From IMG/VR virus record IMGVR_UViG_3300021961_000025: 64,000 bases of DNA. The stretch is one strand, 5' to 3'. Shown piece after piece: positions 2,025 through 55,141 of the stretch (its first letter is position 1; each line of letters begins with the position of its first letter). The position numbers were made by a program, and so were the translations under genes. This DNA is from a virus. Below the pieces are notes generated by a model, which saw nothing but the letters and a program-made list of their open reading frames with translations, did no database searches and was not told the DNA's origin.

Positions 2025-2029
2025 GATTA

Positions 2030-2036
2030 CTAAATA
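2030..2036 (+). promoter_or_regulatory. Late promoter (CTAAATA, T4 TATAAATA-like)
   Basis: Same heptamer recurs at gene boundaries at 4754, 8584, 9266, 21429, 36626, 37056, 47068, 50108, 54895, 60421. Confidence 0.7.
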
Positions 2037-2070
2037 AGAGTGTATTAAACTAAATCGATGGACAAAAGAA

Positions 2071-8587: not shown

Positions 8588-8602
8588 ATAATAGTATAAA
8601 CC

Positions 8603-8644
8603 TAGAGTTGGGGTAGGGTTGTAACAAACCCTACCTACTCTTTA
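8603..8644 (+). terminator. Strong hairpin (terminator or 5' stabiliser)
   Basis: GTAGGGTT/AACCCTAC stem extended by AGAGT/ACTCT, then T-rich. Confidence 0.55.
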
Positions 8645-8666
8645 TTATCGAATAGGAGATATAAAA

Positions 8667-27088: not shown

Positions 27089-27640
27089 ATGAACAAAATT
27101 ATTATCACAGGCGATGGTGAAGGTATTGGTCTTGGACTGCGTAATGCTCTAAGTCCAATTGCTAATGTAGTAGGTTACGATCTTAAACAAGGTAAGAACG
27201 TAGCACTTGAGCCAACCTATTCAGAAGTTATTAAAAATTGCGAGGATGCGAATGTCGTAATCCTCAACGCACACACAGGTGAGCAACATTCGATGCTTGC
27301 CGAACTCTACGTCCTCTACAAAGATAAACCTATTCATTGTATCGTACTCGGTTCAATGGTCACTCAGTATTACAGTGATAGTGACTCAGTACCCAAAGAA
27401 TTTAACTTTGTAAAATATTATAATGATAAAGCGAAACTAGATCATAAAGTCAAAGTAATACACACCAATGGACAAAAACCTTTTCGTGTCACGATCGTTC
27501 GTCCATCTTGGGTAGAAACTCCACTAGCAAAAGAATATAATGGTAAGAAATTACCAGTAACTGCAGTTGTTAACTCAATTGTAGATATAATCAACGCACC
27601 TTATCACGTGACAACATTAAATTTAGAAGAGATTGAATAA
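27089..27640 (+). CDS. Short-chain dehydrogenase/reductase
   Basis: ITGDGEGIG Rossmann motif, NA, GS, YYNDK (YxxxK), PSWVET. Confidence 0.8.
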   Translation: MNKIIITGDGEGIGLGLRNALSPIANVVGYDLKQGKNVALEPTYSEVIKNCEDANVVILNAHTGEQHSMLAELYVLYKDKPIHCIVLGSMVTQYYSDSDSVPKEFNFVKYYNDKAKLDHKVKVIHTNGQKPFRVTIVRPSWVETPLAKEYNGKKLPVTAVVNSIVDIINAPYHVTTLNLEEIE

Positions 27641-27641
27641 T

Positions 27642-35311: not shown

Positions 35312-35730
35312 TGCAGTCTAAATTTCAACAACTGTTTATGAAATTTGCAGAAGAAACTGCTAAAGTCTCTTCTGCTACGAAACTGCAAGTTGGTGCAGTT
35401 ATAGTGAAGAACAATCGAGTTATTTCGATTGGATACAATGGTACTCCTGCTGGATGGGATAACGTTTGCGAGGATGCTGATGGTCACACTAAATCTGAGG
35501 TAATGCATGCTGAAGAGAATGCGATACTTAAACTTGCTAGAGATGGCGAGTCTGGTTTAGGAAGTTGGATGTTTTTAACCCACGCACCTTGCATACATTG
35601 TGCGAGAATGATACATGGAGTAGGAATAAATACTATTGTTTATGGACAAAAATACAAAAACGACGAAGGACTGGAATTTCTGGAAAAGTCAAATATACCG
35701 ACTTTCCACTTCCAACAATCTCATTCTTAG
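35311..35730 (+). CDS. dCMP deaminase
   Basis: VGAVIV..IGYNG.P, HAEENAI, PCIHC. Confidence 0.9.
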   Translation: MQSKFQQLFMKFAEETAKVSSATKLQVGAVIVKNNRVISIGYNGTPAGWDNVCEDADGHTKSEVMHAEENAILKLARDGESGLGSWMFLTHAPCIHCARMIHGVGINTIVYGQKYKNDEGLEFLEKSNIPTFHFQQSHS

Positions 35731-36457
35731 AATAGGCTACTATGGATTTCTTCATGCTCTTGCTCTTTATGGGATTATTAGTTGGGGGAGTTTGGGGTTT
35801 GTGGCGACTGCTCTCGGAATTTGGTTTGTGGGGGGGATTGCTGTTAGTGTTTATGTCCATCGTGGTTTGGCTCATGGAGTCGTTCAATTTCATCCAGTAA
35901 TAGAGTATATACTTTTAATTTTCTCAATAGGTAGTGGCATAGGTACACCAGTAGGATGGGCAGCAATCCATCGAATGCATCACGAATATTTGGACACGGA
36001 TCAAGATCCACATAGTCCTTGGCGTATAGGTTTTTGGAGAAGTTATTTTCATTTATGGAACTGGGAGGCAAAAGATGTGCCTTACCGAATGGCAAAAGGT
36101 TTGATTAGTAACAAACGTGCTATGATGTTTCATAATTGGGCAGTACCAATTCTAATTCTATTTTGGATTGGTTGTTTTAGTTTCGGTATGTGGTTTGCCA
36201 CTGCAGCAGCATTAGGTGCAGCATTTGGTGTTCACGGAATGGGATTAACAAATGCTTTTAGTCATCATGGCAAAGAGCGAAAAGAGATTCGAGATTTACC
36301 GAAGTGGTTATCTTGGGTTAACGTAGGTGAAGGACAGCACGAATATCATCATGCTCGTCCATGGGATTATAGTTTCGGAAAAGGGTACTCTGATATCGGT
36401 GCAAGATTTGTTGAGGTATTAGAGAAATTGGGTTTGGCTACTATCAAAAGGAAATGA
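35642..36457 (+). CDS. Membrane fatty-acid (delta-9-type) desaturase; start uncertain
   Basis: His boxes HRGLAH, HRMHH..DT..DPHSP, GEG.HEYHH; TM helices. Confidence 0.9.
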   Translation: MDKNTKTTKDWNFWKSQIYRLSTSNNLILRIGYYGFLHALALYGIISWGSLGFVATALGIWFVGGIAVSVYVHRGLAHGVVQFHPVIEYILLIFSIGSGIGTPVGWAAIHRMHHEYLDTDQDPHSPWRIGFWRSYFHLWNWEAKDVPYRMAKGLISNKRAMMFHNWAVPILILFWIGCFSFGMWFATAAALGAAFGVHGMGLTNAFSHHGKERKEIRDLPKWLSWVNVGEGQHEYHHARPWDYSFGKGYSDIGARFVEVLEKLGLATIKRK

Positions 36458-36465
36458 TATCCAGT

Positions 36466-36542
36466 GCGAGCATAGCCCAATCGGTAGAGGCAACAGACTT
36501 AAAATCTGTACAGTGTGGGTTCGAATCCCACTGCTCGTACCA
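36466..36542 (+). tRNA. tRNA-Leu(TAA)
   Basis: Cloverleaf GCGAGCA/TGCTCGT, anticodon loop CT-TAA-AA, TTCGAAT, encoded CCA. Confidence 0.9.
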
Positions 36543-36544
36543 TA

Positions 36545-36621
36545 GTCCCTTTAGTTCAGTTGGATAGAACAACAGTCTTCTAAACTGTAGGTCGCAGGTT
36601 CGAATCCTGCAGGGGACGCCA
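36545..36621 (+). tRNA. tRNA-Arg(TCT)
   Basis: GTCCCTT/GGGGAC acceptor, CT-TCT-AA loop, encoded CCA. Confidence 0.92.
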
Positions 36622-37067: not shown

Positions 37068-37116
37068 ACACGTTCATCTCGAAAGAGACGGAAGTAAGCG
37101 AATGCTGAAGGAACGC
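37068..37116 (+). ncRNA. Glutamine riboswitch (glnA RNA motif)
   Basis: CGTTCA-TCTC GAAA GAGA-CGGAAGTA-AGC GAAT GCT-GAAG-GAACG: three-way junction with E-loop. Confidence 0.85.
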
Positions 37117-37140
37117 ACCCAACTAAACTAAGGAGGGTGT

Positions 37141-37332
37141 ATGGAAAGATTTACACATCTCTTAAAGTCTTACAGCGAGATCGCCGAAAAGCGTAAAAAA
37201 GATAAATTGTTATTTGCTGCAAGAAAAGAGATTGAGATAAATGGGAATGGTACCTCTGGATATATGATAAAACATGGTCCAAATAAAGGTAAAGTTCTAC
37301 AACATATTTCTATTAAAAAAAGAGATATATAA
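37141..37332 (+). CDS. Small basic protein under glutamine riboswitch
   Basis: AAGGAGG RBS just 3' of aptamer. Confidence 0.7.
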   Translation: MERFTHLLKSYSEIAEKRKKDKLLFAARKEIEINGNGTSGYMIKHGPNKGKVLQHISIKKRDI

Positions 37333-37645: not shown

Positions 37646-37721
37646 TCGCTCGTAGCTCAGTGGATAGAGCACTTGTCTACGGAACAAGGGGTCGCACGTT
37701 CGAATCGTGCCGAGCGAGCCA
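37646..37721 (+). tRNA. tRNA-Arg(ACG)
   Basis: TCGCTCG/CGAGCGA acceptor, CT-ACG-GA loop, TTCGAAT, encoded CCA. Confidence 0.92.
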
Positions 37722-37752
37722 AGAAAACACTTCAGACAAGATAGGTGACAAC

Positions 37753-38208
37753 TTGTACAATACTGTTTCTGAAGATCATCCGTGGGGTATACTTTCGTAT
37801 AATCCCTCTTACAATCGACATCCTTACGAACGAATCTTCAAGCAATTAGAAGAACACGCTATACGCAACTATGGTGTACGTGATCAATTTAAACTTGCTG
37901 CAGGAGTTGTAAAGAAAAAGCAACTGATTACTATTGGCTATAATCAGTTAAAGTCCCATCCACTTCAGAGTCAGTTTGGTAAAAATTTCGATAGTGTTTT
38001 TCTCCATGCAGAAATAGACGCTATCCGTAAATCTTTACGACTACTAAATAGTAGTGAATTGTCAGACTGCGTTCTTTATGTTCTTAGGGTTAAGCGAGAT
38101 CCTAATGGTAATTGGATTCGAGGAATGTCAAAACCATGCGCAGGATGTTACAAAGCAATTAACAATTATGGTATAAAACGAGTTTATTATACCACAGATG
38201 GGGAATAA
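37753..38208 (+). CDS. Zn-dependent nucleotide/tRNA deaminase (start uncertain)
   Basis: IGYN, HAEIDA, LYV.R, SKPCAGC. Confidence 0.8.
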   Translation: MYNTVSEDHPWGILSYNPSYNRHPYERIFKQLEEHAIRNYGVRDQFKLAAGVVKKKQLITIGYNQLKSHPLQSQFGKNFDSVFLHAEIDAIRKSLRLLNSSELSDCVLYVLRVKRDPNGNWIRGMSKPCAGCYKAINNYGIKRVYYTTDGE

Positions 38209-38213
38209 ATTAA

Positions 38214-39059
38214 ATGTTTGTAGCAACACATCCAAGAGAAGTTTTTAACTACACAGATGAAACTGTGATAGCAAACTCGCATCCACCTTACGCAGTAAAA
38301 CTCAAAGTCCCTTTCTCACGTCCATTCACTGACGAAGATTTCATTTCAAAACTACCTATTCCAAAATATTGGTTTGATCCAAAGCACATCCCTGAAAAGA
38401 TGACTTTGATTGATTACCTTATTCATCCTATTAAAAAAGATTATAATGCAGATGTAGGTTACTGTAGCGAGGGTAACTATCGTCAAGGAACTAACTTGGG
38501 TACGGATATTATTCGTATGCCAATGGATAAAATTGTTTGGAAAAACAAATACGAATTTTGGTGGTCTTGTATTGATATTATTAATAACGAAAATAGTTCA
38601 GATCTTGTTCATCCACGATTTACAAAATGGTTAAATGAAAGAGATCTTATTCTATTAGGTTGGGATATTTTTATTACACCACCTAATATGTGGTTGCTTT
38701 ATCACAAAGACACCTACAACGAATGCTGCAAATTAAACTTCGTATATCATTTTAATATGGATGGTTACTCTTGTCAAAGTTATTTTGACGATAATGCTAA
38801 AGGAGATGGTATTGTTTCTGGAGATCCAGATGTAAAATATCGTATTCCACCAGAAGTAAAACCAAAGATGATACACGAACATAATCTATCAAACGATTTA
38901 ACGATGCCATCACTAACCAACATTGGTAAGTGGCATTGTGTATATAACTCTACATCTGGACCAAGAGTTTGCCTTAGCTATATGATTGGTAAAAAAAATG
39001 GTAGAGATATAACTTGGGATAAAGTATATCCACAAGTTGAAAAGGATGTAATTTGGTAA
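38214..39059 (+). CDS. Fe(II)/2OG-type (DSBH) oxygenase, array A member 1
   Basis: F.TPP..YHKD..KLNF..NIGKWHCVYN..R. Confidence 0.65.
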   Translation: MFVATHPREVFNYTDETVIANSHPPYAVKLKVPFSRPFTDEDFISKLPIPKYWFDPKHIPEKMTLIDYLIHPIKKDYNADVGYCSEGNYRQGTNLGTDIIRMPMDKIVWKNKYEFWWSCIDIINNENSSDLVHPRFTKWLNERDLILLGWDIFITPPNMWLLYHKDTYNECCKLNFVYHFNMDGYSCQSYFDDNAKGDGIVSGDPDVKYRIPPEVKPKMIHEHNLSNDLTMPSLTNIGKWHCVYNSTSGPRVCLSYMIGKKNGRDITWDKVYPQVEKDVIW

Positions 39060-39664
39060 TGACTTACATCAAGCAAGTAAAGTTTCCATTCAATATACCT
39101 TATGACGATCCTATGATGATCCAATCTTTTCGTGAAGAAGCAAAGAAAGAGATTAAAAAAAATCCATTAGTTCAAAACTATGGCATCGATTATGACGCCA
39201 GTGGAGTTAGTGAAACTGCTCGTGCTTTCTTTAATCAACAGGGGTATGATGTAGTTGGATGCGAATACTTTTACTTTGAGCCAAATTTTAAAATGGGTAT
39301 TCATATTGATGGCAGTAAGTATTGCTACAAAGCAAAATTTAATTGGGTACTTAACGATAACGTAACGCATATCTTTAAATTCTTCGAGCCAATAGTAGAA
39401 GGAAAATCGGATGCTCACAACGATGGCAATAGTCCGTATAGTCTACAGTTTGATGAAAAAATGGTTGTCGAAAAAGAAGCAAATGTAATTGGCAAACCAA
39501 GTTTATGTATGGTGGGAGTTCCACACCAAGTAATTAATGGACCAAAAGAATTAGAATTATTTAATGTCTGTGTTTGGAAAAAAGGTGTAAAGAGATCTCA
39601 TCCAGATTTAGGTGGTATGGATATGCAAGATGCATTAAAGGATTTCAGTAAATATGTTATATAA
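39059..39664 (+). CDS. DSBH oxygenase, array A member 2
   Basis: IHIDG..KFNW..VGVPHQVIN. Confidence 0.7.
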   Translation: MTYIKQVKFPFNIPYDDPMMIQSFREEAKKEIKKNPLVQNYGIDYDASGVSETARAFFNQQGYDVVGCEYFYFEPNFKMGIHIDGSKYCYKAKFNWVLNDNVTHIFKFFEPIVEGKSDAHNDGNSPYSLQFDEKMVVEKEANVIGKPSLCMVGVPHQVINGPKELELFNVCVWKKGVKRSHPDLGGMDMQDALKDFSKYVI

Positions 39665-40241
39665 AAGATTAAGACATCAAGAACACTTAGAACCAATTCC
39701 ACAACCATTAACACCTTTAGGTATGGCTTGGGCTAAAGACTATCCATTCGAAAAACAAACTAAAATATTTACTGAGAGGAATTTATTTAATCCTGAGTTT
39801 GAAGAATGGCTTTGGAAACATGGACAACTAAGAATTGCAGATATTGAATTGTTTTTAAATCCAGCTAATCACAGCATGCCTGTTCACATAGATGGTGAAA
39901 CAATTTGTGATGTCTGTAAAATAAACTTTGCATATTGCGATAGTCCTAGCTTTATGAAATGGTATAAACCTTTAGTTCCAGGAACTAGAGGAAACTTACC
40001 TTATGCAAATGGAAAACCAACCAACACTGTTGATATGTATTGGCAGTGGGATGGCGTAGAAGAATTAGAATCGGAAGAGATATCTATACATCTCGTGAAT
40101 GTAGGTGTTCCTCATAGTGTAACAACTACAGAAACTGAAAGGCGATGTTTATCTGTTAACCTAGATAAAATTATGCCTGATGGTACTGAAATTACTGAAG
40201 TGCCTTTTAGAATGGGTTTAGAATGTTTATCGCTCACTTAG
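39654..40241 (+). CDS. DSBH oxygenase, array A member 3
   Basis: VHIDG..KINF..NVGVPHSV..RR.LS. Confidence 0.7.
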   Translation: MLYKRLRHQEHLEPIPQPLTPLGMAWAKDYPFEKQTKIFTERNLFNPEFEEWLWKHGQLRIADIELFLNPANHSMPVHIDGETICDVCKINFAYCDSPSFMKWYKPLVPGTRGNLPYANGKPTNTVDMYWQWDGVEELESEEISIHLVNVGVPHSVTTTETERRCLSVNLDKIMPDGTEITEVPFRMGLECLSLT

Positions 40242-40789
40242 AAATACCACACAAACCATTTACTGAAGAGAACTGGCAACGTAGACTTCCATTGAAAGGA
40301 CACGTTCCTATTGATCAATCTTTGATTAATAAAGAAATGATTGATTGGTTTGAAATGAAAGGTATGTGGATTAAAAATGTGGATGTCTTTTGTAGTCCTC
40401 CAGGATTTAGATTACCTATTCACGTAGACGGAAAGAAAATTGATCATTGTTGCGCAATTAATTGGGCATATTGTGATGAGTTGGGTGCACTTATGGAGTG
40501 GTGGAAACCTAAATCAGATGTTATAAGAACAGTAACTCCAGGAACAGAAAAGACTGCATACAATATAACTACAACACCTTATGCATTTGCATGGTCAGAT
40601 GATGAGTGTGATAAAGTTTTTGAATCGGAAGTAAAGCAACCCTCTCTAGTTAATATTGGTCAACCACATGCTATGACCAATCATACAAACAGTCAGCGTT
40701 TTGCAATTAGTATTACTTTCCGTAATTTTAATGGAGTCGATATGCAATTTGAGGAAGCACATGCAAGATTACAACCACACCTACTTTAG
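40223..40789 (+). CDS. DSBH oxygenase, array A member 4
   Basis: IHVDG..AINW..NIGQPHAMTN..R..IS. Confidence 0.7.
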   Translation: MFIAHLEIPHKPFTEENWQRRLPLKGHVPIDQSLINKEMIDWFEMKGMWIKNVDVFCSPPGFRLPIHVDGKKIDHCCAINWAYCDELGALMEWWKPKSDVIRTVTPGTEKTAYNITTTPYAFAWSDDECDKVFESEVKQPSLVNIGQPHAMTNHTNSQRFAISITFRNFNGVDMQFEEAHARLQPHLL

Positions 40790-41345
40790 AAATTTAAAAT
40801 TAGACTTTGATCCTTTTAGTGACAAGTACGTTTTTCCAGAAAGCCAAACTCAGAAAGCTAAATACACAGACCATATCGACAATCGAGAACTTATTAATCC
40901 AAAGTTAATTGATTGGGCGACGAGTATTGGTTTAGGTGTTACAAGAATAGAGAGATTCAGTAGCAATCCAAACTATCGTATGTATATACATACTGATAAT
41001 CATGATTGGATTGACAATTTGGTTAAGATCATTTGGTGTTATTGTCCTACCAATGATCATCGTATGACTTGGTACACACTTAAAGACGAATCGTGGTACG
41101 AAGTTATTACAAACAATGATAGTGGTGGAACCATGATGTTTCCAGACTTTAATTGCGTTGAAGAGGTAAGCACTACAATAATGCCCAACTCTCCAATACT
41201 TGCAAATACTGGTCAACCACACAATATAGAAAACGGACAAAATTACAGGCATGTTGTATGTGCATGGTTTCATACTTTAAAAAATCCACAGATTGACTTG
41301 CAATGGGATCTTGCGGTAAAATGTATGAAAGAATTTATTATTTAA
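40761..41345 (+). CDS. DSBH oxygenase, array A member 5
   Basis: IHTD..KIIW..NTGQPHNIEN..R. Confidence 0.7.
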   Translation: MQDYNHTYFRNLKLDFDPFSDKYVFPESQTQKAKYTDHIDNRELINPKLIDWATSIGLGVTRIERFSSNPNYRMYIHTDNHDWIDNLVKIIWCYCPTNDHRMTWYTLKDESWYEVITNNDSGGTMMFPDFNCVEEVSTTIMPNSPILANTGQPHNIENGQNYRHVVCAWFHTLKNPQIDLQWDLAVKCMKEFII

Positions 41346-41355
41346 AGAGCAAATT

Positions 41356-42531
41356 ATGAAAAAATGTTATGTTGTTGGTTATGGGATGATTGATTCCTTA
41401 GGAAATAATCCAGTGGATTGTTTCGCTAAAATGCTTGATCCTATCGACTACTCGTCGGAACTACCAAGACTAAAAGAAGAAAATTTTCCAGTTTATCGTG
41501 GAGCGATTTTTGATCCAGAAACGATAGTTATGCCTGAGGACTTTGATCCAAAAATGGCGAGGACTTTGACTAACGCACAAAAGATGATGTTGCATGCTAC
41601 TGATCAAGCACTAGCAATGTCACGATTACCTCATCACTATGATGTAGCTGTGCTTATGTCGTCAGTTTCTAATGATACAGAATTCTTAGAGCAAAATTAT
41701 AATGCGATTAAGGATAACAGAAGAGTAAACCCAAGACAGTCTGCGAATCGAATTCCAGACATGGGATGTTCACACATAACATCACATTATCAATTCATGG
41801 GTTTATCGACCGCAGTATTTGCTAGTTGTGCAACTGGTTTGGTCGGTATCGATTATGCAATGCGTCTCGTAGATGAATACGAGTATGTTGTTGTAGGTGG
41901 TGCCGATGCTGGTTGCTTTCCGATGGCTATCAAATACTTTAACACTATGGGAGCAGTTGCCAATCATAGTATGCCTTTCGATGATAATCGTAAGGGATTT
42001 CTAATGGGAGATGGCTGTGGGGTTATGATTTTACAATCGGAGAAAAATGTAAAGAAATATGGTAGCACTGTCCATGCGACACTTTATCCAACTGGATGTG
42101 CTAGTGATGCTATGGATATGACGAGTCCTGCGAACGATGGTCGTGGTGCTAGAATCTCTATGGCAAAAGCAATGGAACACGTAGACAAAGTAGATTATGT
42201 ATGTGCGCATGCGACATCTACTTTTGTTGGCGATCCCATTGAATATGAAACTGTAGTTAGCTTTGTGGGTGATACTCCTATTTGGGCACCAAAGTCTAAG
42301 ATCGGACACACACTTGCTGCTGCTGGAATACTTGAGGGAATCTATTCCATTCTTGCGATGCAACATGGTATTGTACCTCATATTCAAAACCTCACAAATG
42401 CCTCTCTCGACACAAAGGACTTGCTCGTACGAGAGAATCAAACAAACTCGAACAAATGCTTGAGAACGCTTAACAATTCTTTTGGCTTTGGAGGTAAATG
42501 CGTTTCTCAGGTAATTGAGGTAAACAAATGA
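41356..42531 (+). CDS. fabF: Beta-ketoacyl-ACP synthase (FabF/FabB type)
   Basis: ASCATG (Cys), PFD..R.GF.MG.G, HATST, KSKIGH, NSFGFGG. Confidence 0.92.
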   Translation: MKKCYVVGYGMIDSLGNNPVDCFAKMLDPIDYSSELPRLKEENFPVYRGAIFDPETIVMPEDFDPKMARTLTNAQKMMLHATDQALAMSRLPHHYDVAVLMSSVSNDTEFLEQNYNAIKDNRRVNPRQSANRIPDMGCSHITSHYQFMGLSTAVFASCATGLVGIDYAMRLVDEYEYVVVGGADAGCFPMAIKYFNTMGAVANHSMPFDDNRKGFLMGDGCGVMILQSEKNVKKYGSTVHATLYPTGCASDAMDMTSPANDGRGARISMAKAMEHVDKVDYVCAHATSTFVGDPIEYETVVSFVGDTPIWAPKSKIGHTLAAAGILEGIYSILAMQHGIVPHIQNLTNASLDTKDLLVRENQTNSNKCLRTLNNSFGFGGKCVSQVIEVNK

Positions 42532-42878
42532 GTTGGGGATATCACCTAATCATTGATTGTAAGGCATGCGAAAAAAACTTTAAAGAACCAGATATTATGA
42601 AAAAATTTGTCGCAACATTACTAGAAAAAATAAAAATGAATGCTTGGGGTGAGTGTCAAGTTGAACACTTCGCAGAAAAACCAGAGATTGCTGGTTGGAC
42701 TGTTATTCAACCATTGACGACAAGCACATTAACAATGCATTTCTTGGATAATTCAGGAGATCTATACTTTGATCTTTTCAGTTGTAAGAAATTTGATATT
42801 CAAGAAGTCGTGGATCACTTAGCTGAGTATTTTGCTCCAGTTAATATTCGTCCATTCTATCTTGAAAGGAGTGCCTAA
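42528..42878 (+). CDS. speD: S-adenosylmethionine decarboxylase-like pyruvoyl enzyme
   Basis: GYHLIID, G.T..Q.LTTS.L.MH, Y.DLFSCK.FD. Confidence 0.75.
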   Translation: MSWGYHLIIDCKACEKNFKEPDIMKKFVATLLEKIKMNAWGECQVEHFAEKPEIAGWTVIQPLTTSTLTMHFLDNSGDLYFDLFSCKKFDIQEVVDHLAEYFAPVNIRPFYLERSA

Positions 42879-42880
42879 TT

Positions 42881-43351
42881 TTGCTAACACCAAAAGAAGC
42901 ACTAATGAGGTGGCTTAATAGAATCCAGATACCTCAAGAAAAGTTATCTGGATTTGCCATCTGTCCATTTAGTAAACAGATTCGTGGAGAACCTGCAATG
43001 ATCTCTACATTAGTAGAAGATATTGTTCCACCAAAAGTAAGCGAAATTAAAAAGATTCTAGTTTATCATATTCTTGATGAGGATATTACTATTGAAGAAC
43101 TAGAGAATGAAGTGTTTATATTGAATTCTAAATATAAACCAGAGTTACTATTTTTAGGCGATCATATGGATCGTGATACATATATTAATGGTGTTCAAAC
43201 TAATAATGGACATTATAACTTTATACTGTGCCAACCACTAGATGATTTGAGAAGTGCAAGAAAAGTACTTGCTAAAACTCCATATTACTCTTACTGGGAT
43301 GACGAGTATTTAAAAGAAATCTTAGGAGAAGATTATGGCAGTTTGGACTGA
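42881..43351 (+). CDS. DUF1415-like protein
   Basis: W...I..G..CPF, DH, L..AR..L..T.YY..W. Confidence 0.55.
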   Translation: MLTPKEALMRWLNRIQIPQEKLSGFAICPFSKQIRGEPAMISTLVEDIVPPKVSEIKKILVYHILDEDITIEELENEVFILNSKYKPELLFLGDHMDRDTYINGVQTNNGHYNFILCQPLDDLRSARKVLAKTPYYSYWDDEYLKEILGEDYGSLD

Positions 43352-44423
43352 TTACGACCCACTAAAAGAAATTATTGTTGGTAGTTGCCCAACAGCAGAA
43401 TACTTCAAAGCATTCCTACCTGATGATGTAATTGCTGCACTTACACCAATCCTTAAAGAAACCAAAGAAGATCTAGATAATATGCAACGAGTGTTTGAAT
43501 CACTCGGTGTTAAAGTATATCGTCCTAAGATTTTACCATTTCAACAGAATTTAAAACTTCCTGGATTCTCAATTAAAAATGCTATTGCACCTATTGTTCC
43601 TCGTGATCAATACTTGGTGTATGGTGATACTATTATCCAATCATATACTTCAATGCCAGATCGTTGGCTTGAGGGATTATGTTTCTATGATATCTTCAAC
43701 GAAAAGTTTGACGAAGGATATAATTGGATAAGTGTACCACCACCTGTTATTAAAAACTTCCCTTCAAATACTTCTTGGTTTACTCATGGTGGCGATCGTT
43801 ATAAGATCGAAATGAAAGATAAACTACTCTGGCATGCAGCAACAATGTTTAAAATTGGCGACAGTTTAATTGTCAATAATCAAGGTCCAGGAACTCAAAA
43901 AGGATATGAGTGGTTTAAACGTCAGTTACCTCAAACCAAATTTGTAGATAACATTAAGAAACCACATCGTGGATGGGGACATATTGATCAATACTTCTTT
44001 TTAGTTAATGATACTACTTGTTTCTGTACTGATGAGAATTATGTTCCAGAAGCAATTAGACAAAATCCAAATATCAAAGTCCATTCATTTGGGCATTTGA
44101 TTAAAGATGTTGATCTTAACTCTTACGATGATAATCTAGTTGCAAGCGATGGTAAATTTACCAAAGGCTGGATTGATGAATGGGTTGGTGAATGGAGAGG
44201 GTTTGCACAAGACGTTGCTTTTGATAGTAACGTTGTTGTAGTAGATGAAAAGAATATCGTTATAAGTAACGAACAGCCAAAACTACAAGAGTGGTTATTA
44301 AAGAATCACGGAGTAACTGCTCACGTTGCAAAACAGAGACAAGGTGGTTTCTGGGATGGTGGCGTTCATTGTTTAACGCTAGATATTAAGCGTGATGGAG
44401 TATCAAGAAATGTCTTGGGTTAA
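43335..44423 (+). CDS. Amidinotransferase (Arg:glycine/inosamine amidinotransferase family)
   Basis: W...DPLKEIIVG, PRD, GHID, GGVHCLTLD..R. Confidence 0.85.
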   Translation: MAVWTDYDPLKEIIVGSCPTAEYFKAFLPDDVIAALTPILKETKEDLDNMQRVFESLGVKVYRPKILPFQQNLKLPGFSIKNAIAPIVPRDQYLVYGDTIIQSYTSMPDRWLEGLCFYDIFNEKFDEGYNWISVPPPVIKNFPSNTSWFTHGGDRYKIEMKDKLLWHAATMFKIGDSLIVNNQGPGTQKGYEWFKRQLPQTKFVDNIKKPHRGWGHIDQYFFLVNDTTCFCTDENYVPEAIRQNPNIKVHSFGHLIKDVDLNSYDDNLVASDGKFTKGWIDEWVGEWRGFAQDVAFDSNVVVVDEKNIVISNEQPKLQEWLLKNHGVTAHVAKQRQGGFWDGGVHCLTLDIKRDGVSRNVLG

Positions 44424-45021
44424 CGCTAAAACCTATACACATTATGCAGATTTAGAAAAAGCAATTCCTATTGTTGTAGAAGAAACACAACAATGGATGA
44501 AGCATAATCACGATATTGTTGGTGTTACGGTAAATACCTTTGGAGTAAATAGTAAAGAAGATTTAACCGAAGTCCCTGTTACACCAGAAGAGTATAAGCA
44601 TATGGATGACTGGAGAGTTTTACCTATGCTTTATGCGAAAGAGTGGAATCGACATGTATTTCCAAAGTCGCACTTTTTGCTTGCTCCACTTCCAGGACTG
44701 TATCAAGCATTAGTAAATTTTGTTGTTCCTGGAGGAAGGATTGCGAAACATCGTGACACAGGAAACTGGGACAGGATTGAAGAACACTATGGGATTCGTA
44801 TTGATGGTTATAGTGTGGTACTTAATCTTAACATCGCTATGAGTGATAAGAAAGAAAAAACAGTAGGTATGGAAGTTGGTGGATTTGAAAAGTATCCACT
44901 AACTGGAGAGATCGTCGCATTTGATGGTCGTTCAACAGCACATAGTATGTGGAATTTAACAGATCAATGGCGAGTTACTGCTGTACTTGACTTTGATAAG
45001 AGGTATTTCAATGTGGATTAA
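44410..45021 (+). CDS. Asp/Asn beta-hydroxylase-like oxygenase, array B member 1
   Basis: LPGL..VNF..PGG.I..HRD..FDG...HSMWN.T..WRV. Confidence 0.75.
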   Translation: MSWVNAKTYTHYADLEKAIPIVVEETQQWMKHNHDIVGVTVNTFGVNSKEDLTEVPVTPEEYKHMDDWRVLPMLYAKEWNRHVFPKSHFLLAPLPGLYQALVNFVVPGGRIAKHRDTGNWDRIEEHYGIRIDGYSVVLNLNIAMSDKKEKTVGMEVGGFEKYPLTGEIVAFDGRSTAHSMWNLTDQWRVTAVLDFDKRYFNVD

Positions 45022-45724
45022 TGTAAAGAAGTATAAACACTACGACAAGTTATTGGAGATTATTCCATTAGCACAACAAGACTTTGCTAATTGGAAAGAC
45101 AAATACAAATACGAAGATCGTATGCAGGTATTAAAGTTTGAACATCCAGATGTTTATCCTGAATTAAAAGGAACATCTACAAGCAGTGATCTTTATCACC
45201 GACCAGAAAGTATTCCAGATCGACCAAATCCAAAAGAGAATTGGTTCTGCGATCCTTGCAGTACAGACACTGGTAAGAAGATTGGTCCAGCATTTCAAGA
45301 CTGGAAACTATCAGCACCTAAAATTTTAGAACTTCCAGGATTTGTTCAACACCTTGTTAACTTTGTTAAGCCACATAGTAGCTTACCACCACACGATGAC
45401 TTGGGTGGATGGGTAAGACTATCAAAAGATACTGGAAGAGAATTAAATGGATTTAGTGTAGTATTAGGACTAGATACAGTAAAGAATAAAGACCAAATGG
45501 GTATTATGTTTAATAACGTTTGGACTGGCAATAAAGATCCACGTGCATGGGGTATTGGCGAGTGGGTTGCATTTGAGGGTAAAACTCATTTTCACGATGT
45601 GTTTAATAGAACAGATCAATGGCGAGTTACTGTCGTTGTAGATATTGAATACGATCAGTTTGATTTAAGTGATGAAGAGTTAGACTATTTACAAAATCGT
45701 TGGAGAACTTATAAACCTGTATGA
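45011..45724 (+). CDS. Asp/Asn beta-hydroxylase-like oxygenase, array B member 2
   Basis: VNFVKP..LPPHDD..FEG..HFHDVFN.T..WRV. Confidence 0.75.
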   Translation: MWINVKKYKHYDKLLEIIPLAQQDFANWKDKYKYEDRMQVLKFEHPDVYPELKGTSTSSDLYHRPESIPDRPNPKENWFCDPCSTDTGKKIGPAFQDWKLSAPKILELPGFVQHLVNFVKPHSSLPPHDDLGGWVRLSKDTGRELNGFSVVLGLDTVKNKDQMGIMFNNVWTGNKDPRAWGIGEWVAFEGKTHFHDVFNRTDQWRVTVVVDIEYDQFDLSDEELDYLQNRWRTYKPV

Positions 45725-45894
45725 AAAAAACAATAATAAAAATATTAGATGTAACTAAAGATATACTAGAGTGGTGGATTTACTGGGTGTTTTATGTAGT
45801 AGCTGTTCCACTTTTCTTCGGTGGACTAGCTGTAATATGGACGATAGATCAAGCGATGGAATTAATAAAGAAAATTTATAAACGTTATAGGTAG
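45721..45894 (+). CDS. Small membrane protein (not in ORF track)
   Basis: ATGA-coupled, 57 aa, one TM. Confidence 0.45.
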   Translation: MKKTIIKILDVTKDILEWWIYWVFYVVAVPLFFGGLAVIWTIDQAMELIKKIYKRYR

Positions 45895-45897
45895 AAA

Positions 45898-46482
45898 ATG
45901 TGGAGAAATTATAAAGATTATAAACACCATGGATTGCTTAGAGAAGTACATCAAGCAATGCATGCAGATTATCTAGATTGGATAAAAACTCATGATATTA
46001 GAAACAGTACTGTTAATGTGTTTAAGTATGAGTATCCTGAAGCAAAGCATCAATACGCAGACTCTTGGTGGGCGATACCTATTGCGCAGGGTGGTAAACT
46101 CGAACCCAATGACTGGAAAAGAACATCACCACTTGTAGAAAAACTTCCTGGATTACTACAGTGTGTTATTAATTTTATTGAACCACAAGGTGGACTACCA
46201 ATGCATAAAGACATGGGTAGTTGGCATCGTATTGAACAGGCTATCGGACGCAGAGTAACAGGATGGACGATTGGTATTGGTATCGATATGCCTAGTGAAT
46301 CACATAGAGAATTAGCAATTAAATTTCTTGAAGATGATATTGGAACATGCTATAAAAACGGAGAGTTCGTTTGTTTCGATGGACGTAATCATCTACACGA
46401 AGTTTGGAATAAAACAGACAAATGGCGAGTCAGTGCAGTAATTGATCTCGATGATAAGGAGTTTCGAAATGTGGTTGGGTGA
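45898..46482 (+). CDS. Asp/Asn beta-hydroxylase-like oxygenase, array B member 3
   Basis: INFIEP..LPMHKD..FDGR..HEVWNKT..WRV. Confidence 0.75.
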   Translation: MWRNYKDYKHHGLLREVHQAMHADYLDWIKTHDIRNSTVNVFKYEYPEAKHQYADSWWAIPIAQGGKLEPNDWKRTSPLVEKLPGLLQCVINFIEPQGGLPMHKDMGSWHRIEQAIGRRVTGWTIGIGIDMPSESHRELAIKFLEDDIGTCYKNGEFVCFDGRNHLHEVWNKTDKWRVSAVIDLDDKEFRNVVG

Positions 46483-47050
46483 TCCAATTCAATATAAGCA
46501 TTACACCAAATTACAAGATTTGATGACTGCGATGATGCAAGATCATCTTGAATGGAAAGAAAAATATACCATTGAGGAAAAATGCATTGACGCTGGATTG
46601 CGTTATAAAATGCCTGCAGAAAACACTGGTGGCTTTATGGCACTACCAGTAATTGACGCAAGAGAAATTAAAATGCCATGGGCAGAGGGATGGGATCGAA
46701 CTATGACTGCTGCCTTTGATTGTCCTGGAATGATTGATATGTGTATTAACTTCATTCGTCCAGGAATGATGTTACCTGTCCATCACGATGGGTATGTATG
46801 GGATTGGATTCGTAAATCGATGAACAATCCGAAATTATCTGGGTATACCATTTCTTTTGGTATTTCAATTCCTGAACCCAGTAAACAAGCACTAATCTTT
46901 GACGAAGAAAAACGTATTTGGAGTACTGGAGAGTTTCGTGCATTTAATGGGCACGACGTTCAACATCAACTTACAAATCGTTCGAAAGAACACTGGCGTG
47001 TAACTGCAGTGATGGAAGTCGAAGAAAAATATTTTGATCTGCAAGAGTAG
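46469..47050 (+). CDS. Asp/Asn beta-hydroxylase-like oxygenase, array B member 4
   Basis: INFIRPG..LPVHHD..FNG...HQLTN...WRV. Confidence 0.75.
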   Translation: MWLGDPIQYKHYTKLQDLMTAMMQDHLEWKEKYTIEEKCIDAGLRYKMPAENTGGFMALPVIDAREIKMPWAEGWDRTMTAAFDCPGMIDMCINFIRPGMMLPVHHDGYVWDWIRKSMNNPKLSGYTISFGISIPEPSKQALIFDEEKRIWSTGEFRAFNGHDVQHQLTNRSKEHWRVTAVMEVEEKYFDLQE

Positions 47051-49002: not shown

Positions 49003-49515
49003 ATGAAAATGGAAAATATGATGAAAAACGTGAAAAAAATATACTTAGACATGGATGGCGTTATCGCCGATTTTGATAAACATTACTTTGCAGGTGGTAA
49101 GTCATTCTTATACGATGACTTTAGGGATCAAGTCCTTAATAAAAATCTGTTTAGGCAACTACCTTTGATGCCTGATTATGAAAAGTTTATCGCAGGTGTG
49201 TTAGAGATTGCACACGATAATGGATTTGAAGTTGAAATCTGTTCTTCGACTCATACTTTAGATCCTGAAATGATGAAGATTGCTAGTGATCAAAAAAGCT
49301 GGTGGTTGAAAAATGTAGCGATGCTGAAGTCGATGCCTGCAAACTTTGTTGAACGTAGATCGGCAAAAGCGAAATTCGCAAATGAAAAAACGATTCTAAT
49401 TGACGATTCTATAGAATGTATTAACTACTTTAAAGAGGGTGGTGGTAATGCGATCTGTCATCAAGACGTAGATACTACTCTTACTCTTCTAAAAGAAATG
49501 GTGAAATCGATTTGA
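49003..49515 (+). CDS. HAD-family 5'(3')-deoxyribonucleotidase
   Basis: LDMDGVIADF, K..W, LIDD. Confidence 0.8.
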   Translation: MKMENMMKNVKKIYLDMDGVIADFDKHYFAGGKSFLYDDFRDQVLNKNLFRQLPLMPDYEKFIAGVLEIAHDNGFEVEICSSTHTLDPEMMKIASDQKSWWLKNVAMLKSMPANFVERRSAKAKFANEKTILIDDSIECINYFKEGGGNAICHQDVDTTLTLLKEMVKSI

Positions 49516-50111
49516 ACATATTCTACTTAGATCCTAATCCAAAACTATGTGCTGAATATCATTGCGACAAACACGTCGTTAAGATGATTATTGAATATGC
49601 ACAATTGCTTTCCACTGCACATCGTGTTATTGATGGTACGCAATGGGAAGGTAAATCTATTAGTGGAAGACGTATTGCTCGTTGGAAACATCCAGATCCA
49701 ATAATGGATTCAGAGTTATATTTGGCATCACACATTAAACATCCTAGTGGTATTTGGTGTCGTGAAAACGAAAAGAATTATACTTGGTTGTATACTCTTT
49801 GGATTAATCTTTGCCACGAATATACTCATCGTTATGGTAAGGTGCATCTTACTGAACAAAAACTTTCAAAACATTTAATTAGTATTCCAAAGAATATAAA
49901 ACAGGGTGTATGGTGTGAACCCTATCCTGCAATGGCACATTATCCTCAATGTATTGTTAAAAATGATAGTTTGAAATCCTATCATAACTATTATATTGCT
50001 GACAAGGTTAGATTTGCAAAATGGACAAAACGAGATATTCCTAAATGGTTTAAAGATATGCTTGTTACTGCAATGTCAAATACACATCAGATAGTAGGAA
50101 TTCGTTCCTAA
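49512..50111 (+). CDS. Pyrimidine-dimer DNA glycosylase (DenV)-family protein
   Basis: NIFYLD..HCDKHVVKM..E.AQLL..HP..W..EY..RYGK.H. Confidence 0.75.
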   Translation: MNIFYLDPNPKLCAEYHCDKHVVKMIIEYAQLLSTAHRVIDGTQWEGKSISGRRIARWKHPDPIMDSELYLASHIKHPSGIWCRENEKNYTWLYTLWINLCHEYTHRYGKVHLTEQKLSKHLISIPKNIKQGVWCEPYPAMAHYPQCIVKNDSLKSYHNYYIADKVRFAKWTKRDIPKWFKDMLVTAMSNTHQIVGIRS

Positions 50112-52432: not shown

Positions 52433-52954
52433 ATGAAACTACAAGATGTTTTATTCTACATGCGAGAGCGTGATGAATCGATCGGTGGAGACAATCCTTA
52501 CAAGTGGGTTTATAAGCATACAAATGATTTGTTTGCGAATAAGAAAGTTGTAATTTTTGGTCTTCCTGGAGCATTCACACCTACCTGTTCCAACTCACAA
52601 CTACCTGAATATGAACAACGTCATCAAGAGTTTAAAGATCTTGGTGTTGACGAAGTTTGGTGTACGTCTGTTAATGATGCGTTTGTAATGCATCAATGGG
52701 CGAAGTCACAAAACCTTGTTCATACAAAGTTGTTGCCTGATGGAAATGGAGACTTTGCGAAGTCTATGGGTATGCTAGTAGATAAACGTAATCTTGGATT
52801 CGGACATCGTAGCTGGAGATATTCTATGTTGGTTGACAACATGGAAGTCAAAGCGATTTTCAAAGAACCAGATCTAATGGATAACTGTCCATACGATCCA
52901 TTCTTTGTATCAGATGCTGACCAAATGATTGCGCATTTAAAAACAGTATGCTAA
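52433..52954 (+). CDS. Peroxiredoxin (Prx5 type)
   Basis: PGAFTPTCS, SVND.FVM..W, DGNG.F, RSWRYSM. Confidence 0.93.
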   Translation: MKLQDVLFYMRERDESIGGDNPYKWVYKHTNDLFANKKVVIFGLPGAFTPTCSNSQLPEYEQRHQEFKDLGVDEVWCTSVNDAFVMHQWAKSQNLVHTKLLPDGNGDFAKSMGMLVDKRNLGFGHRSWRYSMLVDNMEVKAIFKEPDLMDNCPYDPFFVSDADQMIAHLKTVC

Positions 52955-54228
52955 ACAACGAACTAAAACCTTTTAGTCTTGGTGAGAGCAATAAGAAAGT
53001 TATTGCTACATACGATTATTGGATTGAATACGAGGGAGGTTCTAAATCCCTCGAAATTCAATCTGGTAATGCTGCATTTACTTTAGGGTATAATCATAAT
53101 AAACTAAAACAACACATCTTTGACAATAAGGTTGATTTTGTTCGAGGTAATACTGGAGAGTCTTCTGAATTAGTAGATTCTCTTTCAGATTTATTATGCA
53201 ATATTTCTAATATGAAATCTATTGCTTATGCTGTAAGTGGTAGTGATGCTAACGAATCAGCAATTAATGCTGTGGATCGTTACTGGACTTCTAAAGGTGC
53301 ACATCGTCCATACATTATATCAATTGCTCCTTGTTATCACGGAACAACGTATACCACAAAGACATTATCAACAGAATTAGAAAGACCAAACTATAGTGGA
53401 TGGTCTGAGTTTAATAGAACAAGAGTTATTCTTGGTAAACGTTGGGAGGATGTTAAAGACCAACGTGCAAACGAATTATATAAGATAGCCAAACTTAAAG
53501 AGTATCTACAAACACACAGTAAAGAGACAGGTGCGATTATATTAGAATCGATACCTTGGAATGATCAAATTGCTCCCTACAGTAAAGAGTTTTGGCTAGA
53601 CATTGAAGCACTTGTAGACGAATACGATATTCTTTTTATATTGGATGATGTAGCTGGATGTTTCGGTAAGAACGAAAGACTATTTACACATCAGTATTTG
53701 TCTATTCGACCAGATATTATTACCATTGGTAAATCACTTACGAATGGTTATGTTCCTTTAAGTGCTAGTTTACATAATGATAAAGTTTCAAGTATGATTG
53801 CTAGTAAGACATGGGAACACGGACATACGTGGCAACCTACAATGAATGGTGTAGTTGCTGCACATATTTGTTTGATGGAACATATTCAACACATTGAAGA
53901 TAACAAACATAAGTATATTGGCGAACAGTTAGATGCATTAGGTAATGAGTTAGTACAAAAAGGTTTATCCGATGGATTCGTAAGACAAGGATCTTTTATG
54001 GGTATTAATACCTTTGGTATTGACGTAAGTTTAGCTAAACTATCAAATGCTGGTCTTGCAGCAACAACTGCAGCAGATCAAATAAAATTGGTAGTACCAA
54101 CTATTGCCAATGATAACTATTTTACAGAATTAAAAACCAGAGTTTATAATTTACTAGATGATGTTTATGCTTCTAAAAGAGCAATGGAAGAAACACTCAA
54201 AGGTTATATGAACTCAACGAGAGTATAG
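52948..54228 (+). CDS. Class III PLP aminotransferase (paralog of 27642)
   Basis: QSGN.A..LGY, FVRGN.GE, SGSDANE, YHG.T, DDVA.CFG, PDI..GKSL..G, GHTWQP.M. Confidence 0.88.
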   Translation: MLNNELKPFSLGESNKKVIATYDYWIEYEGGSKSLEIQSGNAAFTLGYNHNKLKQHIFDNKVDFVRGNTGESSELVDSLSDLLCNISNMKSIAYAVSGSDANESAINAVDRYWTSKGAHRPYIISIAPCYHGTTYTTKTLSTELERPNYSGWSEFNRTRVILGKRWEDVKDQRANELYKIAKLKEYLQTHSKETGAIILESIPWNDQIAPYSKEFWLDIEALVDEYDILFILDDVAGCFGKNERLFTHQYLSIRPDIITIGKSLTNGYVPLSASLHNDKVSSMIASKTWEHGHTWQPTMNGVVAAHICLMEHIQHIEDNKHKYIGEQLDALGNELVQKGLSDGFVRQGSFMGINTFGIDVSLAKLSNAGLAATTAADQIKLVVPTIANDNYFTELKTRVYNLLDDVYASKRAMEETLKGYMNSTRV

Positions 54229-54729: not shown

Positions 54730-54867
54730 GTGGAGAAAGAGATACAAGAGTTTCTATCATATTGGGAAAGACGTGGAATTAAACTTCCTAATCCAGAAAT
54801 GTATCCTAAGTGTTTTGAATATTACGTTAAGATTTACAAGTATTACAAGAGCAGAGGAACTGCCTGA
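54730..54867 (+). CDS. Small conserved phage protein (not in ORF track)
   Basis: LPNPE.YP..F.YYVK motif, GTG start. Confidence 0.5.
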   Translation: MEKEIQEFLSYWERRGIKLPNPEMYPKCFEYYVKIYKYYKSRGTA

Positions 54868-54904
54868 TTTACTTGCAAGAAATTAAAGAATATACTAAAT
54901 AATA

Positions 54905-55141
54905 TGCTTGAGTTGATGACTCTGCTTGGAAGATACTTGGACGTGGGTGCGATTCCCACCACCTCCACCATAAACACATTTACTGAGTGTGCTTATGATG
55001 GGGGTGATTTTAGGTTCGACAGGTTTACGAAGATCAGACGAGATGACAGCAAAACACAAACGCAAACGAAAACTTTGCACTTGCTGCCTAATTTAGGCTG
55101 ACGGAGTTTCGGTAGGTTTCTTGGCAACAGAATAACCTACC
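54905..55141 (+). ncRNA. ssrA: Permuted two-piece tmRNA
   Basis: Acceptor piece ends CACCTCCACCA (54970); coding piece starts GGGGGTG (55000) giving G3:U70; tag ANENFALAA* at 55062-55091; terminal hairpin. Confidence 0.92.

Follow-up and report, generated by a model that had tools for sequence, protein, structure and literature searches.

Separable ketosynthase and amidinotransferase modules lie side by side in a freshwater T4-like phage lineage

The freshwater pelagimyophages (PMP-D) described by Zaragoza-Solas et al. (2020) carry speH, fabF, a stearoyl-CoA desaturase gene and a 2-oxoglutarate (2OG) oxygenase gene that are unique to them, and AspH and ribosomal protein S21 are core genes of pelagimyophages (PMC7029224). 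Homologues of SpeD from freshwater myophages, 117-122 amino acids (aa) long, have been shown biochemically to be ornithine decarboxylases (ODCs), some of which are also arginine decarboxylases (ADCs) (PMC9992855). The amidinotransferase HsvA amidinates a polyamine, spermidine (PMC6187163). AglA from Streptomyces monomycini is the prototype of the YqcI/YcgG heme-thiolate enzymes, its heme being ligated by the N-terminal Cys44, and enzymes of this family N-hydroxylate guanidine groups in argolaphos, guanitoxin, miharamycin and D-cycloserine biosynthesis (PMC12866846). Here we analyse a gene run at positions 38214-47050 (plus strand) of a 64,000-nucleotide (nt) stretch of viral DNA, IMG/VR record IMGVR_UViG_3300021961_000025, which is called the window below. 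The run holds genes for a ketosynthase (KS), a SpeD-like decarboxylase, a viral-only protein of 156 aa and an amidinotransferase, placed between two arrays of oxygenase genes.

All open reading frames (ORFs) of this 8.8-kb run lie on the plus strand, and neighbouring ORFs overlap by 4-32 nt or are separated by gaps of 2-10 nt. A preliminary description, made from the letters of the window, had reported tightly packed genes over ~8.8 kb: five double-stranded beta-helix (DSBH) oxygenases upstream, a ketosynthase with an intact Cys-His-His triad, a SpeD-like enzyme, an amidinotransferase with PRD, HID and GGxHC motifs, and four Asp-beta-hydroxylase-like oxygenases. All 16 ORFs were found at their coordinates, each of these assignments was recovered, and the catalytic residues are intact; the observation as first reported is confirmed. 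The interpretation given with it is partly supported. A viral pathway to a hydroxylated guanidino/amino compound is plausible for the part made up of the SpeD-like gene, the 156-aa gene, the amidinotransferase and the oxygenases, whereas the acyl nature of the product and the link to the ketosynthase found no support.

Fifteen IMG/VR contigs with a ketosynthase at 74-78% identity, one of them a complete 144.8-kb genome, keep the full gene order, namely desaturase, upstream oxygenase array, KS, SpeD-like gene, 156-aa gene, amidinotransferase, AspH array (4-6 copies) and a 199-aa gene. Since these close contigs amount in essence to two sub-lineages, and T4-like phages share synteny anyway, the ketosynthase survey was widened. 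The co-occurrence surveys covered about 160 IMG/VR loci in all, with 81 KS loci and 81 amidinotransferase loci examined. Outside the closest clade there are 65 KS loci, in which the ketosynthase sits among uvsX-, gp33- and DUF-type phage genes and in which no SpeD-like, 156-aa, amidinotransferase or AspH gene lies closer than 10 kb, except at locus L019, where these genes are found 6.5 kb downstream of the KS. No amidinotransferase was found in two KS genomes (G001 and G005, 92% and 100% complete) in searches whose positive controls score 1e-173, and the KS is missing from four contigs of 127-270 kb that carry the amidinotransferase. Because KS genomes lack the amidinotransferase, amidinotransferase contigs lack the KS and the two are spaced apart in L019, the KS and amidinotransferase modules are separable, and their abutment in the window is lineage-specific. 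The co-conservation that the preliminary description looked for is thus seen for the whole block in the 15 related viral contigs, but the KS and the amidinotransferase occur independently of each other in most phages, and its single KS + amidinotransferase pathway is not supported.

We therefore favour, with an even chance of being right in our judgement, a lineage-specific juxtaposition of two independent auxiliary-metabolic modules. Module A is made up of a membrane desaturase, the five orphan oxygenases and the KS, which would serve host fatty-acid synthesis. Module B is made up of the SpeD-like protein, the 156-aa protein, the amidinotransferase and oxygenases, is built round a conserved 156-aa/amidinotransferase pair, and would make a hydroxylated guanidino-amine.

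The opposite reading is one integrated pathway, in which an acyl chain built by the KS would be aminated, amidinated and poly-hydroxylated, and the guanidino acyl product would decorate virions, DNA or the envelope. It gains from the contiguity and constant order of all genes in the window and the 15 related contigs, and from the gene junction itself: in this lineage the KS stop overlaps the start of the SpeD-like gene, and a sigma-70-like promoter match (TTGACT-18-TAAAAT, 10/12 positions, 41293-41322, +) stands just upstream of the KS. The site is suggestive, and promoter-like counts overall were not above those of shuffled sequences. Because of the overlap and the promoter-like site, the KS and the SpeD-like module may be co-transcribed and functionally linked in this lineage, and this weighs against two independent modules. 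Further points on the same side are that oxygenase arrays are common in aquatic T4-like phages and may have unrelated targets, and that none of the computations fixes a substrate. Against the integrated pathway in turn stand the independence of the two modules in most phages and at whole-genome level, their spacing in L019, and the enzymes that are missing around the KS, as follows.

The ketosynthase (41356-42531, +) is a FabF-like beta-ketoacyl synthase of a virus-specific clade (PF00109, 3.7e-25; PF02801, 2.8e-22). Residues C158, H285, K313 and H318 are invariant in 15 homologues. Its best NCBIfam model is fabF, with 218.1 bits against an equivalog cut-off of 493.75, and because of this difference (218 against 494 bits) we class the protein by sequence as FabF-like and not as a FabF orthologue. 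It is 25-33% identical to bacterial-type FabF/FabB in the phage collection, which are host-like or contaminant records, and a KS profile search found homologues at 40-78% identity in 111 IMG/VR contigs.

No acyl carrier protein (ACP), acyltransferase, chain-length factor (CLF), ketoreductase (KR), dehydratase (DH), enoylreductase (ER), adenylating enzyme or CoA ligase was found in the cluster at 38214-47050, and no ACP or other gene of fatty-acid synthase (FAS) or polyketide synthase (PKS) type was found among the conserved KS neighbours in other loci. A type II FAS/PKS gene cluster is recognised by a KS, an ACP and at least one of CLF, acyltransferase, KR and DH; here the KS stands without these companions. 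With ACP, acyltransferase, ketoreductase, adenylating enzyme and CoA ligase all missing from the cluster, an acyl product finds no support.

The window does encode an ACP of 87 aa (5206-5469, +; GIDSL phosphopantetheine site, PF00550 at 46 bits), which together with two class-III aminotransferases would suit the integrated pathway. This ACP is 36 kb from the cluster, with a 162-aa ORF of no assignment on either side and a ferritin-like gene (5978-6415) nearby. Neither G010, a complete relative that carries the entire cluster, nor other KS-bearing complete genomes gave an ACP in a search with a protein query that had no positive control and that short domains may escape. With the modules separable and the carrier protein so placed, we consider the integrated pathway improbable. 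Weak homologues of the window ACP in phiCbK-like Caulobacter phages and cyanophage P-HM1 carry an ACP annotation.

A membrane fatty-acid desaturase-like protein is encoded upstream of the run, at 35636-36457 (+; PF00487, 6.3e-8). It matches an NCBIfam DesA-family model at 3e-15, far under the cut-off, and has the His boxes HRGLAH, HRMHH and HEYHH. In 31 of the 81 KS loci, spread over all four KS lineages, the gene is no more than 10 kb from the KS. In lineages A and B the orphan oxygenase array immediately precedes the KS, and in lineage D a PF13640 oxygenase adjoins it. A 199-aa ORF at 49512-50111 (+), with no NCBIfam match, is found downstream of the cluster in all close relatives at 55-58% identity; its homologue also lies +3.3 to +3.9 kb from the KS in lineage-B phages that have no amidinotransferase module.

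The five upstream ORFs have no match in Pfam or NCBIfam, nor in a PDB sequence-profile search; PHROGs gave two families of unknown function, and nothing else, for these five ORFs and the 156-aa ORF. Paralogue 1 (38214-39059, +) aligns with the array family, has an HKD..H motif and tblastn cross-matches to the paralogues, and is the most divergent copy, with a long N-terminal extension. Paralogue 2 (39053-39664, +; HID..H) has an orthologue at 56% identity in contig L001, and paralogue 3 (39654-40241, +; HID..H..R) has orthologues at 41-49% identity in all related contigs. Paralogue 4 (40223-40789, +) is the member that was modelled with AlphaFold2 (AF2), with a mean confidence (pLDDT) of 91.3. 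Paralogue 5 (40701-41345, +; HTD..H..R) has orthologues at 54-64% identity; because these relatives begin at an equivalent internal Met, its true start is probably the internal Met near 40761. H67, D69 and H149 are invariant over 73 homologues, and R159 is conserved in at least 90%. In the VIA structure scan the model of paralogue 4 matched proline 3-hydroxylase 1e5r (Z 9.9), the nucleoside-antibiotic hydroxylase 7v4p (Z 9.7) and human AspH 5apa (Z 8.8), and its Foldseek matches include NO66, AlkB and EvdMO1. With the HxD..H triad, a basic residue for the 2OG C5 carboxylate and the predicted DSBH fold, the model and alignment identify the array as Fe(II)/2OG-type DSBH oxygenases. The family is large, with 1398 representatives at E<=1e-3 among 1.8 billion sequences.

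In module A as we propose it, the KS, lacking a dedicated carrier protein and reductive partners, would most simply act on host acyl-ACP and malonyl-ACP. The host type II fatty-acid synthase, with the host ACP, would be used to sustain or change the elongation and modification of acyl chains in the course of infection, and these chains would be modified by the desaturase and the adjacent oxygenases.

The central enzyme of module B is the 362-aa product of the ORF at 43335-44423 (+). As a single sequence it has no Pfam family at E<=0.01. A profile built from seven sequences matched the PDB chains of HsvA (5wpi, 4e-25), StrB1 (1bwd, 1.6e-23), SxtG (6u1r, 1.8e-22) and AGAT (1jdw, 2e-21) in a list that extends to 4e-20, with the alignment in two stretches, residues 2-222 and 297-357. 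D91 of the PRD motif, H216 and D218 of HID and C346 of GGVHC are invariant over 20 sequences of 43-68% identity. By profile and motif the protein is a true L-arginine-dependent amidinotransferase of a virus-specific subfamily. Agmatine deiminase, an alternative for this ORF, was rejected, all significant PDB matches being amidinotransferases. The family comprises 272 clusters at E<=1e-10 and 115 IMG/VR loci by profile, and no member of the subfamily was found in 185,579 cellular genomes by a pattern scan, which finds only sequences with the chosen motifs. The homologue in Campylobacter phage CP220 is annotated with a weak PF02274 match.

The 156-aa gene (42881-43351, +; phrog_10325, T4-LIKE GC 824) is immediately 5' of the amidinotransferase gene, 400-470 nt before its start, in 56 of the 81 amidinotransferase loci, over amidinotransferase identities of 40-68%. 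Directly 5' of the 156-aa gene, in several independent lineages, is a SpeD-like gene; minimal trios of SpeD-like, 156-aa and amidinotransferase genes occur in L118 and L137, and the SpeD-like gene is 2-8.5 kb off in about 12 more amidinotransferase loci. What follows the amidinotransferase varies. Among 61 distinct architectures its first downstream gene encodes an AspH-like oxygenase in 10, a B12-binding radical SAM protein in 9 and a tryptophan halogenase in 4, and many others have an uncharacterised gene in this place. A second radical SAM protein, a short-chain dehydrogenase/reductase (SDR), a class-III aminotransferase, and AspH-like and orphan oxygenases are further neighbours. A conserved core with variable tailoring enzymes is the way in which biosynthetic gene clusters evolve.

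Some of these architectures recur in detail. In L102, L107, L109, L125 and L134 (~8001-9080) the order is two to four copies of a 181-aa family, tryptophan halogenase, 156-aa gene and amidinotransferase, followed by a B12-radical SAM protein (609 aa), an HMPTM-type Zn-ribbon radical SAM protein (387 aa), an SDR and a class-III aminotransferase. An amidinotransferase lineage of 41-42% identity (L138, L141, L142, L144, L145, L147, L149, L150 and L153) has no 156-aa gene and has fixed neighbours, in terms of local clusters c34, c50, c45, c39, amidinotransferase, c40, c43, c44, B12-radical SAM, c49 and c65. The two class-III aminotransferases of the window are of the ornithine/GABA/putrescine type (27633-28850 and 52948-54228, +), and a class-III aminotransferase also recurs beside the amidinotransferase in L107, L109, L134 and L140.

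The preliminary description had called the 156-aa protein DUF1415-like. The protein is there, and the DUF1415 label proved a weak lead; a literature search for DUF1415 found nothing relevant. In 31 sequences of the family C28 and P29 are invariant, as are D94, N109, Q118 and R127. The AF2 model (pLDDT 93) has a four-stranded sheet with flanking helices. In an exhaustive VIA scan of 48,161 chains, AglA (9ub3) was the sole chain with Z>=5 (Z 6.5, rmsd 4.0, 144 of 156 residues aligned), the next chain having Z 3.9. The alignment begins at residue 1 of the model and residue 14 of the chain, so the position of C28, as judged from these starting points, is consistent with that of the heme ligand Cys44 of AglA. 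Taken together, the match in fold, an N-terminal Cys that never varies and a regular guanidine-forming neighbour make an AglA-like heme-thiolate guanidine N-hydroxylase the best available hypothesis for the 156-aa protein, with a chance that we put close to, and perhaps just short of, even.

Several observations count against it. The match to AglA is structural only, and its Z of 6.5 is below the tool's safe zone of about 8. Foldseek of the model against the PDB gave nothing significant. The family has no Pfam, NCBIfam or PDB sequence match, no Pfam label was seen on 120 homologues, and no sequence-level link to YqcI/YcgG was found. Nor did the window show a redox partner of the kind that a heme enzyme needs. 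As to distribution, the family is viral-only: a pattern scan of 185,579 cellular genomes, which again finds only sequences with the chosen motifs, revealed no relative. A homologue in cyanophage S-PM2, where the cyanophage annotation is T4-LIKE GC 824, occurs without an amidinotransferase.

The SpeD-like protein (42528-42878, +; 116 aa) is a pyruvoyl-dependent decarboxylase of SpeD fold (class 1b; PF02675 at 55.7 bits with a cut-off of 25, phrog_3125). The processing Ser S66, preceded by a Thr, and the catalytic H71 and C86 are conserved. According to PMC10407285, a Pro three residues after the catalytic His is fully conserved in true S-adenosylmethionine decarboxylases (AdoMetDCs), and Gln, Thr, Phe and Tyr of the central region are diagnostic for pyruvoyl ornithine decarboxylases (SpeDC). 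The window protein reads H71-F-L-D74, with no Pro after the catalytic His, and none of its relatives has a Pro there; Q61, T65, F72 and Y80 are conserved in the relatives, in that order. The residues suggest that it is probably an ornithine- or arginine-specific decarboxylase (ODC/ADC), and an AdoMetDC seems unlikely. On the other side, the Gln, Phe and Tyr, three of the four residues read as diagnostic of ODCs, are also present in the validated AdoMetDC of phage phiN3, which also has no such Pro, and phiN3 is the best cultured-phage match to the SpeD-like protein (35% identity). A PDB sequence-profile search with the family gave no match. In the close relatives L001-L015 a conserved 50-aa ORF lies ~150-220 nt past the KS, between the KS and the SpeD-like gene, and the SpeD-like proteins have longer N-termini (136-163 aa); the window has no 50-aa ORF, and its KS and SpeD-like genes overlap by 4 nt.

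Downstream of the amidinotransferase are four AspH/LpxO-like 2OG oxygenases, all mutual paralogues with an HxD..H motif. Paralogue 1 (44392-45021, +; HRD..H) overlaps the end of the amidinotransferase gene and matches PF05118 at 27.3 bits (cut-off 22.6), with a weak OlsC match. Paralogue 2 (44987-45724, +; HDD..H) is just under the cut-off at 20.4 bits and was assigned as a paralogue of the others. Paralogue 3 (45898-46482, +; HKD..H) scores 32 bits and matches the OlsC model at 3.8e-6. Paralogue 4 (46442-47050, +; HHD..H) is under the cut-off at 17.8 bits and has orthologues at 57-62% identity in related contigs. Between paralogues 2 and 3 the ORF list and sequence give a 57-aa ORF with a hydrophobic core (45721-45894, +), which the preliminary description did not have. 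Its membership of the cluster is uncertain, and tblastn found no homologue in related loci.

From these families we infer the substrates, step order, heme binding and product of module B. The SpeD-fold pyruvoyl enzyme would convert ornithine (or arginine) to putrescine (or agmatine). The amidinotransferase would then transfer the amidino group of L-arginine to that amine, as HsvA does with spermidine, and the by-product ornithine could re-enter the first step. The 156-aa AglA-like protein may N-hydroxylate the guanidine, either on arginine before the transfer or on the product, and further hydroxyl groups would come from the four AspH-like oxygenases. The product would be an (N-)hydroxylated guanidino-amine of agmatine or arcaine type.

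The same genes could instead serve ordinary polyamine boosting, an alternative that we regard as somewhat unlikely. Here the SpeD-like enzyme and the amidinotransferase would raise putrescine or agmatine pools, the 156-aa protein would be accessory or unrelated, and the oxygenase arrays would hydroxylate ribosomal or virion proteins or, LpxO/OlsC-like, lipid A or ornithine lipids. As polyamine auxiliary genes, phage SpeD homologues with ODC/ADC activity are well established (PMC9992855), AspH belongs to the pelagimyophage core with or without an amidinotransferase (PMC7029224), the weak OlsC matches of the AspH-like paralogues fit, and so do the 156-aa homologues that occur without an amidinotransferase in cyanophages such as S-PM2. 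Against pool boosting stand the tight adjacency of the 156-aa and amidinotransferase genes over 40-68% divergence, the oxidative and radical tailoring enzymes (AspH-like, B12-radical SAM, tryptophan halogenase) that recur directly after the amidinotransferase, and the CP220 amidinotransferase inside a radical-SAM array; the pattern is more like that of a biosynthetic cluster than of a pool-boosting pair.

It is also conceivable, and in our view quite improbable, that the amidinotransferase and its tailoring enzymes act on a sugar, cyclitol or macromolecule (an aminocyclitol or glycan precursor, or a DNA or protein side chain) and not on a polyamine. StrB1, an inosamine-phosphate amidinotransferase, scores nearly as well as HsvA in the profile search, the neighbours in other lineages include SDR, class-III aminotransferase, radical SAM and B12-radical SAM genes, and glycosyltransferases adjoin the amidinotransferase of CP220. 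No cyclase, glycosyltransferase or nucleotide-sugar gene is found in the window's cluster, however, and the recurrent SpeD-like neighbour points to amines derived from amino acids. In CP220 (L018, 69923-82966) the gene gp086 is embedded in a series of five radical-SAM genes, after which come two genes for nucleotide-diphospho-sugar transferase-like proteins and one for a PAP2 phosphatase.

Returning to the two-module explanation, the phage auxiliary genes concerned are of kinds usually interpreted singly, and the decarboxylase, the amidinotransferase and the small viral-only protein form a conserved core over more than 50 divergent viral loci, with changing tailoring enzymes as the signature of a family of natural-product clusters. 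A wider proposal, possible and still doubtful, is that the 156-aa/amidinotransferase pair is the core of unrecognised virus-only biosynthetic clusters whose products would be small molecules of N-hydroxyguanidine type, derived from arginine and ornithine, and whose variety would come from an exchange of tailoring enzymes (orphan and AspH-like 2OG oxygenases, B12-radical-SAM methylases, radical SAM proteins, flavin halogenase, SDR and aminotransferase). If it is true, aquatic T4-like phages have a genuine secondary metabolism, and a miniature heme-thiolate N-hydroxylase would be a new enzyme class. Confirmation of module B would mean that abundant freshwater and marine phages make modified guanidino-polyamines while infecting, would give the characterised phage pyruvoyl ODCs a pathway context, and would add a very small heme-thiolate N-hydroxylase scaffold to the known enzymes. 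For the ketosynthase, an over-reading is corrected: it is a separate, widespread phage gene outside any KS + amidinotransferase operon.

What appears to be new is the 156-aa/amidinotransferase core, together with its AglA-like fold and the changing tailoring genes around the pair. The preliminary description knew of no KS + amidinotransferase operon in a phage, and our literature search for such a cluster found nothing relevant; fabF, speH, desaturase and AspH genes in freshwater pelagimyophages are, however, already listed (PMC7029224), and amidinotransferases are annotated in CP220 and in cyanophage S-SCSM2R, so the gene content is new only in part.

The window belongs to a T4-like, pelagimyophage-type freshwater phage. 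Nearly all its ORFs are on the plus strand and its GC content is uniform at 34-40%. The gp32 single-stranded-DNA-binding protein is ~50% identical to those of Pelagibacter phage HTVC008M and Melnitz methylophages, and ribonucleotide reductase (RNR) subunits, T4 RNase H, ribosomal protein S21 and three tRNAs are also encoded. No match of the region to isolate phages was found by megablast. The cluster is also present in a complete related viral genome of 144,834 bp, which has direct terminal repeats. Mis-assembled host DNA was rejected in view of the uniform GC and strand use and of the same block in that 144.8-kb genome; the phage origin of the run is upheld by gp32, RNR, RNase H, the tRNAs and the single coding strand. 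A permuted (two-piece) transfer-messenger RNA (tmRNA) of alphaproteobacterial type, with the tag ANENFALAA, lies at 54864-55141 (+; Rfam RF01849 and RF04321, ARAGORN) and points to an alphaproteobacterial host of SAR11/LD12 type.

Several other features were recorded. An Rfam glutamine riboswitch (glnA RNA) at 37069-37119 (+; 62 bits, gathering score 35) lies directly 5' of a 63-aa ORF (37141-37332), about 1 kb ahead of the oxygenase array, and could be a nitrogen-sensing element beside a nitrogen-rich pathway. tRNA-Leu(TAA) and tRNA-Arg(TCT) are side by side at 36466-36621 (+). At 37646-38208 (+) there is a tRNA-Arg(ACG), followed by an ORF of cytidine/dCMP-deaminase fold that overlaps the tRNA at its annotated GTG start and also matches MafB19-like deaminase. 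Positions 786-4761 (+) encode a DUF6267 protein (359 bits) and, after it, a protein of 896 aa; the N-terminus of the latter is cytidylyltransferase-like (phrog_3041, phrog_395), and its other 600 residues have no assignment.

Like the freshwater pelagimyophages PMP-D, the window carries speH, fabF, desaturase, 2OG oxygenase and AspH genes, and its S21 gene and alphaproteobacterial-type tmRNA are in line with their description; these genes are treated as separate auxiliary genes in PMC7029224, and the amidinotransferase is not mentioned in the searched text of that paper. The KS shares with bacterial FabF two thiolase-fold domains, the Cys-His-His triad, the catalytic Lys and the C-terminal NSFGFGG. 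Unlike bacterial FabF, it falls in a virus-only clade and below the equivalog cut-off, and has no adjacent FAS genes or ACP.

The SpeD-like protein has the same fold as the phage SpeDC and SpeDA enzymes (PMC9992855, PMC10407285), is of the same size class (116 aa compared with 117-122 aa) and comes from the same source, a freshwater myophage; the Ser, His and Cys for processing and catalysis and the absence of the AdoMetDC-type Pro are common to both. SpeDC and SpeDA are assayed enzymes, whereas the window protein is known here from its sequence, and a linkage to an amidinotransferase or a 156-aa gene is not described in the two papers. The 156-aa protein resembles the YqcI/YcgG enzymes AglA, DcsA, GntA, Mhr24, AmbT and ChmN in its predicted fold, N-terminal Cys and context of guanidine chemistry. 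It differs from them in being much smaller (156 compared with 243 aa) and in having no detectable sequence similarity, PF08892 match or observed reductase partner.

Among other phages, CP220 gp086 is a 27% identical amidinotransferase within a radical-SAM array, and S-SCSM2R gp266 is an amidinotransferase followed by four oxygenase-type genes (a partial match, 32% identity over 27% of the query); neither has an annotated adjacent 156-aa or SpeD-like gene. HsvA of the hsv operon (phevamine), AGAT, StrB1 and SxtG are related to the window amidinotransferase by profile homology and have the same catalytic Asp, His-x-Asp and Cys, and HsvA uses L-arginine as amidino donor. In comparison with them the window enzyme is ~25-30% identical, virus-specific and without ATP-grasp ligases, and, unlike the hsv operon, its locus pairs the amidinotransferase with a SpeD-fold decarboxylase, a small heme-like protein and oxygenases.

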